64,000 nucleotides of DNA from Bacteroidota bacterium (lineage in GTDB: Bacteria; Bacteroidota; Ignavibacteria; Ignavibacteriales; Melioribacteraceae), in contig JAKAMT010000001.1 of assembly GCA_021812705.1 (NCBI GenBank), positions 8,016 through 72,015 of the forward strand, read 5' to 3'. Numbering within the stretch: position 1 is the stretch's first letter; every line of letters starts with the position of its first letter. The notes under the pieces were generated by a model. The model was not told the DNA's origin, made no database searches, and was given only the letters and a program-made list of their open reading frames with translations. The position numbers were made by a program, and so were the translations under genes. Of the stretch, positions 36,645 to 41,576 are shown piece by piece.

Positions 36645-37694
36645 ATGGCACATCCCAAAACGTTAAAGGCAATTGATTTCTTCTGTTCCATCGGCGGCAT
36701 GACATATGGATTTAGGCAGGCCGGGATTAATGTTATAGCAGGAATAGATATAGATTCATCTTGCAAAGAAACCTACGAATACAATAACCCCGGATCGAAG
36801 TTTATAGAAGCCGATGTGATGGATTTAACTTTTGACGATTTGAAAGAAAAAACCGGAATAAAAGAGAATGACGACAATCTTATTTTTATCGGTTGTAGTC
36901 CGTGTCAGTATTGGAGTATAATAAACACAGTTAAGACAAAATCAGAGAAAACGAAAAACCTTCTAACAGATTTTCAAAGATTTGTGGAACATTTTAAACC
37001 CGGATACGTTGTTGTTGAAAACGTTCCGGGAATTTTGAAGAAAGCCGATGAAAGCGGATTGACTAATTTTATTCGTATGCTTGAAGATGGGGGTAATTAT
37101 AGAGTTGATAAGGGAATTTTAAACGCAAATCATCACGGTGTTCCGCAGAAAAGAAGACGGTTCTCTTTAATCGCATCGCGAGTAAATAAACAAATCTCAC
37201 TTCCTCTTCCCAACAAGGGCCCCGCCCCAACAGTAAAAGATTATATAGGAACGAACAACGGATTTGAAAAAATTCCGAATAATCATAAAGACAAAACCGA
37301 CTTTATTCACACGACGGCAAGGCTTAGTAATAAGAATTTGAAAAGAATTATAAAAACGACCAAGAACGGCGGGAGCAGATGCGATTGGAAAGACAATGAT
37401 GAACTGCAATTAGAGTGTTACAAAAAAAGTCCCGACGGCTTTCGCGATATTTACGGAAGAATGTCTTGGGACAAGCCGGCGCCGACAATAACGACAAAAT
37501 TTCACAGCATTTCGAACGGAAGATTCGGACATCCCAAGGAGAATAGAGCAATTTCATTGAGAGAAGGCGCGACATTACAAACTTTCCCCAAAACATATGT
37601 GTTTAAAGAGAAAAGCATAAGCAAAGTAGCAAAACAAATTGGCAATGCAGTCCCTCCAAATCTTGCCTTTTTAATCGCAAAACAAATAATATAG
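36645..37694 (+). CDS. dcm: DNA (cytosine-5)-methyltransferase
   Basis: Motif I FCSIGG, motif IV GCSPCQYWS, motif VI VVENVPG, motif VIII QKRRRF, motif X GNAVPP, in the canonical order. Confidence 0.93.
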   Translation: MAHPKTLKAIDFFCSIGGMTYGFRQAGINVIAGIDIDSSCKETYEYNNPGSKFIEADVMDLTFDDLKEKTGIKENDDNLIFIGCSPCQYWSIINTVKTKSEKTKNLLTDFQRFVEHFKPGYVVVENVPGILKKADESGLTNFIRMLEDGGNYRVDKGILNANHHGVPQKRRRFSLIASRVNKQISLPLPNKGPAPTVKDYIGTNNGFEKIPNNHKDKTDFIHTTARLSNKNLKRIIKTTKNGGSRCDWKDNDELQLECYKKSPDGFRDIYGRMSWDKPAPTITTKFHSISNGRFGHPKENRAISLREGATLQTFPKTYVFKEKSISKVAKQIGNAVPPNLAFLIAKQII

Positions 37695-37701
37695 CAAATA
37701 T

Positions 37702-39489
37702 ATGACTGGGGATATTGAAAATCTAATTGAAACAATTAAACTAATACAGTCTCGAAACCAATTCAAAAATTATATCGATTATATTCAATTTCCTTTCTAT
37801 AGAAACTTGGAATTGGATCAAAGAATTAATTTTTCCTTTCCATTAACGGTTTTTGTTGGGCCAAATGGTAGCGGTAAAAGTTCAACTCTCCATGCAATAC
37901 AAGGATGCCCTGAAGGTTACACGCCGTACAAGTTCTGGTTTTCGACCGCACTCGACCCTGTAGTAGATGTTCTGGACAGTAGGAAATTGAGGCATTCATT
38001 TTTTTATGGATACAAAGATCCAACTGGAGTTGAATTACAGGTAGCTAAGGCGAGAATTAAAAGGAAGAATAATCCTAATTATTGGGAAACTAGCAGACCA
38101 TTGATCAGTTATGGAATGAATCCTCCACCAGAAGGCCGCGAAAGAAATGATCCGATTACAAAAAATGTTGTGCATATAGACTTTCGCTCTATATTAAGCG
38201 CCTTTGATAAGTATTTCTATTTTGAAACACCGTCACAAAATTTAGCTGCAAAAACAAAACAAGAATATTTGAGAACTAGATCTGAGCGTGTAAAAAAAAT
38301 ATTCAGTGGGGAACACAGAAGATACTTGGATAGAAACTCAAACGAATTTAACAGTCCGGTAGTCGAGCTAATTCCGACAGAATTAAGTGAAATAAGCAGA
38401 ATCCTTGGGAAAGAATATGTTGAGGGAAAAATATTAAGACATAGATTATTTCATAACTGGGGGGATTCCGTCTTGCTGAAAACAAATTTTCATACGTATT
38501 CAGAAGCTTTTGCGGGAAGCGGAGAAATGTCGGTTGTTATGCTTGTGAGATTGGTCCTACAGGCGGAAGAATATTCGCTGATAGTATTAGACGAACCTGA
38601 GGTATCTCTTCACCCGGGAGCTCAAACAAAACTAAAACTCTTTCTCTTAGATCAAATAAAAAAGAAAAAACACCAAATAGTTATTTCTACGCACTCCGCC
38701 TCCTTAATTGAAGGATTACCAAAAGAGGCCATTAAGGTTTTTTTCCAAAAAGAAGATTCTGGTAAATTTATCGTGAAAGAGAATATATCGCCGGAAGAAG
38801 CATTTTATTTTATTGGAAAACCTCTTGATGAAAAAACATTACTTGTTGTTGAAGATAAACTGGCCAAAAAAATAATTGACAAAGTACTTACAAAATTAGG
38901 TCCAGAAGTAAAAAATCGCTTTCAAGTCCAAGCAATACCTGGAGGGGCAGAGACAATTAGTAAACATTATATTCCCATTTATTGTAATACAAATAATGCT
39001 AGATGCTTTTTTTTGTTAGATGGAGATAAAAAGCGAGTTGAACATCTGTTCGAAACAGGGACTCTTCAAGCGCAAGATGAAAATGAAGCATTTCTAAGTC
39101 TAAAAATTAAAGAACAAACCGGCTGTGATATTAAATTTCTGGTGGATGGTAATACCGAGGGAGGAAATGTAGGCCAACGAATAACAATGATGATTGATTT
39201 TTTAAAGTATTATGGAGAACACGTAAGATATTTTCCACAGAAAACCCCCGAAGATATTATTTGGTATGATCAAGTTGTCGAGCAAAAATTAAACAAACAA
39301 GACTATGAACAAAATATTGATCAAATAAATTTATTAAGAACCAGTAAACAAAAAATATTTGAAACAGCAAAAATATTTTTTGGTGTTGATACCCAAATAG
39401 ATGCATTTGAAGATATGTTGATAAATGAGTGGATAAGGAAAGAAGACGAAAATTATGTAATTATTAAAAGCATAATTGAATTATTATAG
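37702..39489 (+). CDS. ABC-type ATPase fused to a TOPRIM-like C-terminal domain (OLD/PARIS-like putative nuclease)
   Basis: Walker A GPNGSGKS (K59), signature-like AGSGE, Walker B LIVLDEPE (D297/E298), H-loop ISTHS. The C-terminal LLVVEDKLA (E384) and FFLLDGD (D440, D442) lie 56 aa apart, which fits the TOPRIM E...DxD spacing. Confidence 0.7.
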   Translation: MTGDIENLIETIKLIQSRNQFKNYIDYIQFPFYRNLELDQRINFSFPLTVFVGPNGSGKSSTLHAIQGCPEGYTPYKFWFSTALDPVVDVLDSRKLRHSFFYGYKDPTGVELQVAKARIKRKNNPNYWETSRPLISYGMNPPPEGRERNDPITKNVVHIDFRSILSAFDKYFYFETPSQNLAAKTKQEYLRTRSERVKKIFSGEHRRYLDRNSNEFNSPVVELIPTELSEISRILGKEYVEGKILRHRLFHNWGDSVLLKTNFHTYSEAFAGSGEMSVVMLVRLVLQAEEYSLIVLDEPEVSLHPGAQTKLKLFLLDQIKKKKHQIVISTHSASLIEGLPKEAIKVFFQKEDSGKFIVKENISPEEAFYFIGKPLDEKTLLVVEDKLAKKIIDKVLTKLGPEVKNRFQVQAIPGGAETISKHYIPIYCNTNNARCFFLLDGDKKRVEHLFETGTLQAQDENEAFLSLKIKEQTGCDIKFLVDGNTEGGNVGQRITMMIDFLKYYGEHVRYFPQKTPEDIIWYDQVVEQKLNKQDYEQNIDQINLLRTSKQKIFETAKIFFGVDTQIDAFEDMLINEWIRKEDENYVIIKSIIELL

Positions 39490-39520
39490 AAATGTGATTA
39501 TAACGAAGGAGAAGTGATAA

Positions 39521-41167
39521 ATGTCCGAGTCGTTAAAAATGAGTTTTGATCCTGCTACGATTGAGCATTTAGGGGTTAAAATGTATTCTAAACTTCCTAA
39601 TGCAATCGCAGAGCTGATTGCGAACGCCTATGATGCAGACTCAACTGTAGTAAAGATAAAATTATATGACAAGGGCGAGAAAAAAATTGTAGTTGAGGAC
39701 AATGGCATAGGAATGACCTTTGATGAAGTTAATGATTACTTTTTACGAATTGGTAGAAATAGGAGAAAAGAGGGCCAAAGCCAAAGTCCAAGTGGTAAAA
39801 GAAAAGTGACTGGGAAAAAGGGATTGGGAAAACTATCTTTTTTTGGTATTGGTAACACAATAGAAGTTGAAACAATAAAAGAAAAGTCCGGTAAGAAAAT
39901 AACATTTAAATTGGATTGGGATGAGTTGTTATCAACAAAGGACAGAGACTATCAACCCAAATTCAGAATTTCAGATTGCCCAAAGAATTTGAAAGGGACT
40001 AATATTATTCTTAAAAATCTTCAAAGAAAAACTGATTTTGATAAGAATGAATTGGCGACAAGTATTTCGAAATTATTCAATCTTTTTGATAATAAATTTG
40101 CTGTTTATTTAAGTCGGAATGACGATTTACCATTACAGATAGATGAGAAATTAAAATATGAAAGCATTGAGATAGATTTTGAGTGGCAATATTCATCATT
40201 GATTGCTGGGTTCGATGTGCTGTATGAAAACAAAGAAAAAATAAATGGTAAGATTATTGCGTCTCCAAAACCGTTGAAGCCGGGATTGAGGGGAATTACA
40301 TTATTTGCAAATGGTCGGTTGGTAAATGCGCCTGAATTTTATGGAATTTCAGAGTCTAGCCATGGGTTTTCTTACTTTACTGGGTGGCTTGAAGTTGATT
40401 TTGTTGATGATTGGGAAGAGGATGTAATTTCAACACATCGTCAATCACTTAATTGGGATATTCCTAAGACTATGTTATTACAAGAATACTTGAAAAAACT
40501 AATGTCACATTTGGAAAGAGTATGGCGCGAGAAGAGAAAGGAAAAAAAGAAAAAAGAATTAAATTCAAAAACTAAGCTAAACGTGACTAATTGGTTAAAT
40601 CTGTTACCCAAAGAAATTAGGGCGAAAATGGAGCCCATTGTTGAGACAATAGACGAAAAAGCAGAATTATCAGACGAAGAAATTGCTAACACTGTTCAAA
40701 ATTTACATGAATTGATTCCTGAATACCCCAATTATCATTGGCGCCACCTCCATCAAGAAATTAGGGAGGCTTCAGAAAATGATTACAAGAACAAAGATTA
40801 TTACAGAGCGTTTTTAGAGGCCGCCAAAAGATATATTAATAAAACTCGAATTAAATCTGGGAATGAACAAATAAGTGAGTCGGGTATGATGGGGGATGTA
40901 TATGGAAGAGGCAAGGCGCTAAGTGTTACAAAAAAATATAAAAAGCCAAGAGGTGGGGATTTTTCGGAATCAACAAAATCTAATATCGAAGAAGGACAAA
41001 AATTTCTTTCAATGGGTATTGTAATGGGTGGTAGAAATCCAGTATCTCATGAAGAAATTCAAGACTTGAGAGAATCTGACTTGTTTTCAGAAAAAGACTG
41101 TTTAGATGGATTAAGCCTACTTTCACATTTAATGAAAAGATTAGAAAATTCAGAAAATAATGGCTGA
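39521..41167 (+). CDS. GHKL-superfamily (MORC-like HATPase) ATPase with C-terminal Hypoth_Ymh/TIGR02391-like domain
   Basis: N-box ELIANAYDAD (E31, N35, D38), G1 box VEDNGIGM (D60), G2 box GKKGLGKLSFFGIG. The C-terminal YYRAFLEAAKRYINK...GGRNPVSHEE matches my recollection of PF09509. RBS AAGGAG lies upstream. Confidence 0.7.
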   Translation: MSESLKMSFDPATIEHLGVKMYSKLPNAIAELIANAYDADSTVVKIKLYDKGEKKIVVEDNGIGMTFDEVNDYFLRIGRNRRKEGQSQSPSGKRKVTGKKGLGKLSFFGIGNTIEVETIKEKSGKKITFKLDWDELLSTKDRDYQPKFRISDCPKNLKGTNIILKNLQRKTDFDKNELATSISKLFNLFDNKFAVYLSRNDDLPLQIDEKLKYESIEIDFEWQYSSLIAGFDVLYENKEKINGKIIASPKPLKPGLRGITLFANGRLVNAPEFYGISESSHGFSYFTGWLEVDFVDDWEEDVISTHRQSLNWDIPKTMLLQEYLKKLMSHLERVWREKRKEKKKKELNSKTKLNVTNWLNLLPKEIRAKMEPIVETIDEKAELSDEEIANTVQNLHELIPEYPNYHWRHLHQEIREASENDYKNKDYYRAFLEAAKRYINKTRIKSGNEQISESGMMGDVYGRGKALSVTKKYKKPRGGDFSESTKSNIEEGQKFLSMGIVMGGRNPVSHEEIQDLRESDLFSEKDCLDGLSLLSHLMKRLENSENNG

Positions 41168-41576
41168 TATATATACAAAACAAAAGCGCTCTCTGATCAT
41201 GTCAAAAATTTCCGGTAAAAATACAAAACCGGAAATTACCATAAGAAAAATTGCCCATTCACTTGGCTACCGTTTCAGACTTCACAAAAAAGATTTACCA
41301 GGCAACCCGGATATGGTGTTCCCCAAATACAAAAAAATAATATTTGTTAACGGCTGCTTTTGGCACGGGCACAAAGACTGTACACGCTCAAAACTTCCAA
41401 CGACAAATAAAAAATTTTGGAAAGAAAAAATAGAATTAAATAAGAAAAGGGATGGAAAAAATTATAATCAACTGAAAAAAATGGACTGGAAATATTTGGT
41501 GATCTGGCAATGCCAGATAAGAGCTAAGTCGTTATCGAAACTCGAGAATAAAATTATTAAGTTTTTAGTCAACTAA
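41160..41576 (+). CDS. vsr: Very-short-patch repair endonuclease Vsr
   Basis: RSLIMSKI.GKNTKPE, LPGNPDMVF, and FVNGCFWHGH. 138 aa. 8-nt overlap with the preceding ORF. Confidence 0.92.
   Translation: MADIYTKQKRSLIMSKISGKNTKPEITIRKIAHSLGYRFRLHKKDLPGNPDMVFPKYKKIIFVNGCFWHGHKDCTRSKLPTTNKKFWKEKIELNKKRDGKNYNQLKKMDWKYLVIWQCQIRAKSLSKLENKIIKFLVN

Follow-up and report, generated by a model that had tools for sequence, protein, structure and literature searches.

GHKL-Ymh "restriction" genes have been catalogued and discussed since 2008–2013, and we found no report showing what their products cut. In Neisseria meningitidis, the putative restriction enzyme R.NmeAIP listed in REBASE consists of a GHKL domain followed by a Hypoth_Ymh C terminus, and R.HgiDII, also in REBASE, joins a GHKL domain to an unassigned C-terminal domain (Orlowski and Bujnicki 2008, PMC2441816). 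Ymh (PF09509) was placed among the predicted RNases of the HEPN superfamily, which show a conserved Rx4-6H motif, and paraMORC(GHKL)-Ymh fusions found within restriction–modification (R–M) neighborhoods were proposed to be functional analogues of PrrC/RloC (Anantharaman et al. 2013, PMC3710099). M.NmeAI, the methyltransferase of the same Neisseria system, methylates C5mCGG (PMC4676702). Among ABC ATPases with a TOPRIM domain, HEC-04 is a validated single-gene defense that was found embedded in another system, and its activity is lost in the K62A and E319A/D375A/D377A mutants (Payne et al. 2024 preprint). Here, we analyze a stretch of 64,000 nucleotides from a Bacteroidota bacterium (contig JAKAMT010000001.1; the whole stretch is called the window), where relatives of both kinds of protein are encoded in one four-gene cassette. 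Its open reading frames (ORFs) encode a 5-methylcytosine (m5C) DNA methyltransferase (Dcm, ORF1), an OLD-family ABC ATPase with a probable TOPRIM domain (ORF2), a GHKL ATPase with a Ymh tail (ORF3), and a Vsr endonuclease (ORF4). Other loci are cited by L numbers.

Results

We determined how often the genes of the cassette occur together, starting from GHKL-Ymh. In a scan taking one genome per species, GHKL-Ymh relatives were found in at least 582 species, and the carriers include Bacteroidota, Campylobacterota, Proteobacteria, Firmicutes, Patescibacteria (candidate phyla radiation), and several archaeal lineages. Gene linkage was scored in 80 loci, 59 of which were well flanked (at least 2.5 kb on each side), a neighbor being any gene within three genes. 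Dcm is beside GHKL-Ymh in 57 of the 59 well-flanked loci (97%), mostly immediately upstream, and Vsr is nearby in 28 (47%). An ABC gene is present in only 6 (10%; 8 of 80 overall), and it lies downstream of the GHKL gene in most ABC-bearing loci but upstream in the window, L013, and L084. Because of these frequencies and of the variable position of the ABC gene, the conserved unit is Dcm plus GHKL-HEPN, with or without Vsr, as in NmeAI, and the ABC gene is optional. An earlier reading of this DNA, made from the letters alone (the sequence-only reading), had described the four genes as one cassette whose co-conservation was to be tested; an ABC gene that is missing from most loci and stands before or after the GHKL gene does not agree with a co-conserved unit of four. 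The same four-gene set does recur (L084, L013, L004, L006, L033, L041, L091, L094, and L167); the arrangement is a variant that turns up repeatedly in a minority of loci and does not make a category of its own. No widespread further partner, including a hidden conserved DNase, was found beside GHKL-Ymh in the 80 loci; the minor neighbors are HNH_2 (9/80), RE_HpaII (4/80), and a split AAA_15 plus DUF3226 pair (3/80).

The Neisseria loci have the order methyltransferase (M), GHKL-Ymh (R), Vsr (V) and lack the ABC gene. L164 (Neisseria gonorrhoeae NZ_CP119142.1, 3939–7063) is one such Dcm-GHKL-Ymh-Vsr locus in which Dcm is frameshifted and GHKL-Ymh is split in two ORFs next to an intact Vsr, and decay seems to have struck M and R together. 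This 2.17-Mb chromosome is entered as a "plasmid" in PLSDB. In Escherichia phage PhiR44_1 (L170; PV340563.1, 3992–7040), a 652-residue protein annotated "ParaMORC3" and a convergent Dcm are encoded between the gpQ portal and gpA replication genes. We take this gpQ/gpA site of a P2-like phage to be a P2 defense hotspot. The HNH_2 (PF13391) gene encodes ∼294 residues and is close to Dcm/GHKL-Ymh, mostly on the opposite strand (2453–3337 in L044, and eight other loci), and L167 has a codirectional 329-residue HNH_2 gene. In L038, L046, and L050 (∼5.2–6.9 kb), genes for a 359-residue AAA_15/AAA_21 ATPase and a 203-residue DUF3226 protein are directly upstream of Dcm-GHKL-Ymh, and this pair represents another type of ABC module, in split form, on the Dcm-GHKL-Ymh core.

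ORF3 shows both halves of the architecture that defines this family. It matches HATPase_c_3 (2e-22) and, at residues 408–541, Hypoth_Ymh (PF09509; 4e-15), with TIGR02391 (Ymh) also covering the tail. In an alignment of 18 family members (56–75% identity), the GHKL residues E31, N35, D38, D60xGxG, and G98/G101/G103 are invariant, and so is a HEPN motif, R505-NPVS-H510, that is followed by an invariant E511. The AlphaFold2 model has a pLDDT score (predicted local distance difference test) of 71 and an all-helical tail, and over 300–370 residues it matched Hsp90/HtpG, the N-terminal fragment of MutL (LN40), and the ATPase module of SMCHD1 in Foldseek. The model thus indicates that the N-terminal part is a Bergerat-fold GHKL ATPase with an S5-like transducer, as in MORC/paraMORC proteins. 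When the tail was compared with PDB sequences, no significant match was found. Its motif and profile matches predict that it is a HEPN domain with an intact Rx4H and a likely RNase. The sequence-only reading had recognized the GHKL ATPase and its PF09509 tail, and it had proposed that the two ATPases of the cassette sense and cleave unmodified DNA; since Hypoth_Ymh is a HEPN domain of predicted RNases, this DNA-only view is incomplete and overlooks a probable effector acting at the RNA level.

We then compared ORF3 with the BbrUII/HgiDII restriction enzymes. The NCBIfam profile NF050001 (BbrUII/HgiDII) matches ORF3 with 7e-68, but over residues 6–386 only (profile positions 2–407 of 659), and a full-length match above the curated cutoff was not reached (229.7 bits vs. 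550). L085 and L086 have the Dcm-ABC-X-Vsr frame of the window, with Dcm and ABC proteins 71–74% and 58% identical to those of the window, respectively. In L086, X is a 618-residue GHKL protein with an end-to-end match to the BbrUII/HgiDII profile (positions 2–647). The C-terminal ∼220–295 residues of three HgiDII-like proteins gave weak, consistent matches to SduA_C (5e-5 to 2e-3) that fall below the Pfam cutoff, and a D...E-x-K pattern can be read in these tails. Because a full-profile match occupies the same gene frame in L086 and the HgiDII-like tails have these weak SduA_C matches, ORF3 is a sister to a genuine family of restriction enzymes and carries a HEPN domain that took the place of a probable PD-(D/E)xK DNase tail. 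Neither ORF2 nor ORF3 matched any PD-(D/E)xK, HNH, GIY-YIG, PLD, or half-pipe family among the Pfam, PADLOC, and NCBIfam profiles, which bears out the earlier description of a methylation-linked cassette without a canonical restriction endonuclease (REase) fold.

ORF1 and ORF4 are the two most readily classified proteins. ORF1 matches Pfam DNA_methylase (2e-61) and TIGR00675 dcm (1.5e-45), and its translation carries all of the m5C motifs (FCSIGG, PCQ, ENV, QKRRRF, and GNAVPP), while ORF4 matches Vsr in Pfam (4e-31), TIGR00632 (1.3e-39), and PADLOC Vsr (2e-28), and contains FVNGCFWHGH; these were the strings the sequence-only reading had quoted. Since the Dcm proteins of two Neisseriaceae loci of the NmeAI type, L053 and L164, share 56–60% identity with ORF1, and M.NmeAI modifies C5mCGG, we infer that ORF1 is probably specific for CCGG. 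In addition, some members of both the GHKL-Ymh and the ABC families adjoin a canonical HpaII (CCGG) REase with a different Dcm, of the M.HpaII lineage, and in two GHKL-Ymh loci a gene with a weak match to BsaWI (WCCGGW) is in the position of the HpaII REase. This suggests that the two families track CCGG methylation and are not tied to any single lineage of methylases. RE_HpaII (Pfam, down to 1e-110) and the M.HpaII-lineage Dcm are directly beside GHKL-Ymh in L023 (5642–9608) and directly beside the ABC-TOPRIM gene in L116, L138, L109, and L112.

ORF2 belongs to a different family of ATPases. It matches AAA_15/AAA_21 in Pfam (1e-15 to 5e-16), and its best PADLOC match is HEC-04 (1.2e-35, 121 bits), ahead of ATPase-Toprim_I-B (3e-20) and weaker matches to AriA, PtuA, GajA, and Old. 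The best-scoring stretch of the HEC-04 match covers ORF2 residues 207–470 only (profile positions 146–405 of 494), and the HEC-04 and ATPase-Toprim_I-B profiles both span the TOPRIM region (E384 and D440-G-D442). Among 20 homologs (46–70% identity), we found the Walker A K59, AGSGE at 271–275, the Walker B D297/E298, H331, E384, G414-G415, D440-G-D442, and E517 to be invariant. By the offset between profile coordinates, the mutated HEC-04 residues map to K59, E384, D440, and D442 of ORF2. All the residues that had been singled out from the sequence, namely K59, E384, and D440/D442 in ORF2 and N35 and D60 in ORF3, are thus invariant in their families. The AlphaFold2 model of ORF2 (pLDDT 82.9) has a beta-alpha-beta-alpha-beta unit at 379–442, and its top Foldseek matches were the retron/Septu PtuA, the Thermus OLD 6P74 (3.9e-11), and GajA, the three having E values of 1e-11 to 1e-8. 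Compared with PDB sequences, the ORF2 profile matched AriA, OLD, and PtuA, with the ABC core alone aligning and the TOPRIM region not. Profiles and model both indicate that ORF2 has an OLD-type ABC ATPase core, as had been read from the sequence, and motifs, PADLOC profiles, and the order of secondary-structure elements agree with the TOPRIM E...DxD site that had been read there as well.

We also looked at linkage from the ABC-TOPRIM side. In a metagenome scan that yielded 67 loci with substantial ORF2 homologs, Dcm is present in 49, and many of the remainder are truncated contigs. About 19 loci are minimal two-gene ABC+Dcm cassettes, whose unrelated flanking genes often run on the opposite strand, and such a pair may be an R–M-like unit with the OLD nuclease as R. 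Examples of the two-gene cassettes are L096, L098, L099, L105, L108, L111, L113, L117, L118, L121, L124, L126, and L129, among others. Elsewhere, the neighbors of the ABC gene include REases (LlaJI or HpaII), helicases (one with a Z1 domain or, in a Gabija-like pairing, UvrD with a fused PD-(D/E)xK nuclease), and GHKL proteins (HgiDII-like, GHKL-Ymh, or a paraMORC that has HEF_HK and histidine-kinase-type domains and comes with a Response_reg_2 protein).

A neighbor-joining tree orders these partners. Distant ABC relatives (28–32% identity) are without Dcm and form an outgroup, and the two-gene ABC+Dcm cassettes are mainly in one clade. The ABC proteins with a paraMORC partner, all but L120, share another clade with the ORF2 of the window, which also includes a few proteins with another or no GHKL partner. 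Within this clade, the C-terminal module of the partner switches repeatedly among Ymh, HgiDII-like, and HEF_HK, and the UvrD-PD-(D/E)xK partners are confined to other clades. Four extra genomic look-ups from the clade of the window gave 1) Dcm-paraMORC(HEF_HK)-response regulator-ABC, 2) Vsr-Dcm-GHKL-Ymh-ABC, 3) Dcm-GHKL(627 residues)-ABC-Vsr, and 4) Dcm-ABC with a convergent Vsr, beside helicase and MZB genes. Since the ABC gene of this clade almost always adjoins a paraMORC-type GHKL gene, there is some support for a functional coupling of ORF2 and ORF3.

In the window, the cassette is compact (Table 1). ORF1 and ORF2 are separated by 7 nt and ORF2 and ORF3 by 31 nt, and ORF3 and ORF4 overlap by 8 nt; the four codirectional ORFs, their coordinates and spacing, and the AAGGAG before ORF3 are all as the sequence-only reading had described them. 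A consensus scan found no terminator-like site on the + strand within the cassette, but it counted as many promoters and terminators as in a shuffled sequence and therefore gives the operon no positive support.

Table 1. Features of the four-gene cassette (positions in the window)
Feature	Position	Strand	Remarks
ORF1, m5C DNA methyltransferase (Dcm)	36645..37694	+	349 aa; self-marking component
ORF2, OLD-family ABC ATPase with probable TOPRIM (HEC-04-like), C-terminal helical domain	37702..39489	+	595 aa; optional accessory
AAGGAG, ORF3 ribosome-binding site	39506..39511	+	9 nt upstream of ATG 39521; read from sequence
ORF3, paraMORC-type GHKL ATPase, transducer, and helical linker (∼1–400), Ymh-family predicted HEPN (∼408–545)	39521..41167	+	548 aa; NmeAI-type "R" gene
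ORF4, Vsr very-short-patch T:G mismatch endonuclease	41160..41576	+	138 aa

The flanks of the cassette are unrelated housekeeping genes. GC content is 0.33–0.38 across 36–42 kb vs. ∼0.42 in the flanks, and because of this low-GC stretch the cassette looks like a small, horizontally acquired island. At 39001–41000, across ORF3, GC skew is unusually high (0.25–0.29) when set against the remaining window; the purine- and lysine-rich makeup of the coding strand there agrees with a foreign origin. An identical locus is present in the metagenome-assembled genome GCA_027340895.1 and in two ENA assemblies. Close homologs are rare in phage and plasmid collections, and our searches gave no support to a phage or plasmid origin. 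Over the whole window, several tetranucleotide palindromes are underrepresented, with observed/expected (O/E) ratios of 0.46 for CTAG, 0.56 for ACGT, 0.63 for GGCC, and 0.68 for GTAC, which may reflect other restriction systems of the host lineage.

Discussion

We propose, with a probability of about one half, that the cassette is a composite m5C R–M-type defense island built on an NmeAI/paraMORC scaffold, in which a methylation-gated GHKL-HEPN protein is joined by an optional ABC-TOPRIM protein. Dcm would methylate host sites, probably CCGG, and Vsr would repair the T:G mismatches that arise from 5mC deamination. The GHKL clamp of ORF3, as a dimer, would use ATP to interrogate DNA and respond to unmethylated sites, after which the HEPN tail would cut RNA and cause growth arrest or abortive infection. 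The ABC-TOPRIM protein ORF2 would contribute a metal-dependent cleavage of DNA, which is missing from the HEPN variant, or would form a second layer, and the shared methyltransferase would restrain both ORF2 and ORF3 on self DNA. If the HEPN tail is indeed the effector, the logic of R–M would be kept in such an R–M-like system while its output would be RNA cleavage, i.e., a methylation-gated abortive immunity. The novelty that had been claimed for the locus holds in part. The gene combination matches no experimentally characterized system, but homologs of its parts are already catalogued or described (R.NmeAIP, NF050001 at 7e-68, the paraMORC-Ymh fusions of 2013, and HEC-04), and REBASE, NCBIfam, PADLOC, and papers on comparative genomics already cover the components and their R–M context.

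Several points weigh against this proposal. The active-site region of the HEPN domain is modeled at low confidence (pLDDT <50 at residues 494–511), and the RNase activity of ORF3 and its substrate are predictions. As a family, GHKL-Ymh proteins are predicted effectors, and R.NmeAIP is a putative enzyme. There is no depletion of CCGG in the window (O/E 0.88), and the avoidance test is therefore uninformative on the specificity of Dcm. For ORF2, the TOPRIM assignment is a probable one, well supported by motifs and profile matches and in agreement with the order of secondary-structure elements. Its physical or functional coupling to ORF3 is inferred from co-occurrence, and it could act independently of methylation, because HEC-04, which is a single gene, gives defense with no methyltransferase beside it.

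The last point leads to the main rival view of ORF2, namely that it is an autonomous sensor-nuclease like HEC-04, PARIS, or Gabija, simply nested in an R–M operon and triggered by phage (e.g., by anti-restriction proteins), which neither reads methylation nor cooperates with ORF3. HEC-04, its best named match, not only defends alone but was discovered embedded in another system, and according to earlier descriptions OLD-ABC modules serve as backup effectors by sensing the anti-restriction proteins of phages. In addition, ORF2-type genes are missing from 90% of the GHKL-Ymh loci and vary in position, and the AAA_15 plus DUF3226 modules adjoin the same core in L038, L046, and L050. However, the ∼19 ABC+Dcm pairs show that linkage to Dcm is tight even when there is no R gene to guard, and the Dcm-less relatives are a separate, distant outgroup. 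A nuclease with its protective methylase is the simpler reading of these pairs, and we consider it unlikely, although well worth keeping in mind, that ORF2 ignores methylation.

It has also to be asked, along the lines of the sequence-only reading, whether the four genes form an obligate new system with one joint restriction enzyme, composed of the ABC-TOPRIM and the GHKL ATPase, for sensing and cleaving unmodified DNA. The tightly packed operon, the nearly constant paraMORC partner in the ABC clade of the window, and the recurrence of the same four genes in nine further loci would all fit. Yet GHKL-Ymh does without the ABC gene in ∼90% of its loci, those of Neisseria included, most of the ABC family is without any GHKL gene, gene order varies, the parts are already catalogued or described, and the HEPN tail suggests RNA, not DNA, as the target, which together make an obligate system improbable. 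That the MutL-like GHKL ATPase and the ABC ATPase (MutS-like in class) merely help Vsr to repair 5mC deamination, with no role in defense, is very improbable: E. coli MutL stimulates Vsr, Iyer et al. drew a parallel between paraMORC R–M systems and MutL in mismatch and very-short-patch repair, and the genes for ORF2 and ORF3 are both linked to Dcm and Vsr, but ORF3 has a predicted HEPN RNase tail and is homologous to a real restriction-enzyme family, ORF2 is of the OLD family and not the MutS family with a nearest named relative, HEC-04, that defends against phage, the patchy distribution and the low-GC island fit horizontal transfer, and Vsr is missing from about half of the loci.

It is conceivable, if rather doubtful at present, that two unrecognized restriction principles meet in the cassette: 1) Dcm with a paraMORC-HEPN protein whose effector is an RNase, and 2) a Dcm-linked ABC-TOPRIM protein representing a fifth context class of OLD proteins, which would carry out ATP-dependent, m5C-sensitive restriction either alone with Dcm or by cutting DNA in partnership with paraMORC sensors. 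Linkage to Dcm in this OLD ABC-TOPRIM clade, including its two-gene cassettes, offers a simple and testable self/non-self model that is relevant to class 1 OLD proteins and HEC-04. Since both effectors and a single methyltransferase fit in <5 kb, the cassette of the window is a convenient test construct.

How does the cassette compare with named systems? Four candidates could be rejected. Gabija (class 2 OLD) does not apply because the cassette has no UvrD-like GajB helicase, and PARIS (class 4 OLD; AriA/AriB) does not because one protein of the cassette combines TOPRIM with the ABC ATPase and a separate DUF4435 AriB-like ORF is absent. An orthodox type II R–M system would have a recognized DNase-fold REase, and fold searches with ORF2 and ORF3 returned ABC/OLD and GHKL proteins. 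Shedu was rejected since its DUF4263/SduA_C PD-(D/E)xK domain has HEPN as the counterpart in ORF3 and since Shedu is without a methyltransferase. GHKL-Shedu (VcSduA, type I-D Shedu) nevertheless resembles ORF3 in layout, with a GHKL ATPase at the N terminus that is predicted to govern an effector nuclease at the C terminus, and the HgiDII-like sisters of ORF3 bear a weakly SduA_C-like tail.

Other systems share more with individual proteins. The anticodon nucleases PrrC/RloC, like ORF3, are NTPases fused to a C-terminal HEPN nuclease and encoded in an R–M neighborhood, but their ATPase is ABC and not GHKL, and their partner is type I R–M, whereas that of ORF3 is usually Dcm only. Of the residues essential in HEC-04, ORF2 keeps both the lysine of Walker A and the acidic ones of TOPRIM; it is ∼100 residues longer, with an extra C-terminal helical domain, and is linked to Dcm and paraMORC, whereas HEC-04 is standalone. 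The BbrUII/HgiDII type II enzymes (NF050001; GTCGAC) have GHKL, transducer, and linker regions homologous to ORF3 and a partner m5C methyltransferase, but their own C-terminal domain (profile positions ∼408–659, weakly SduA_C/PD-(D/E)xK-like) is replaced by HEPN in ORF3. Finally, although NmeAI of N. meningitidis (M.NmeAI, putative R.NmeAIP, and V.NmeAI in REBASE) has three genes, with no ABC-TOPRIM gene, and its restriction activity is putative, it combines an m5C methyltransferase, a GHKL-Ymh "R" protein, and Vsr in the same order as the cassette, and the proteins of the Neisseriaceae loci L053 and L164 are 44–51% (R) and 56–60% (M) identical to those of the window.

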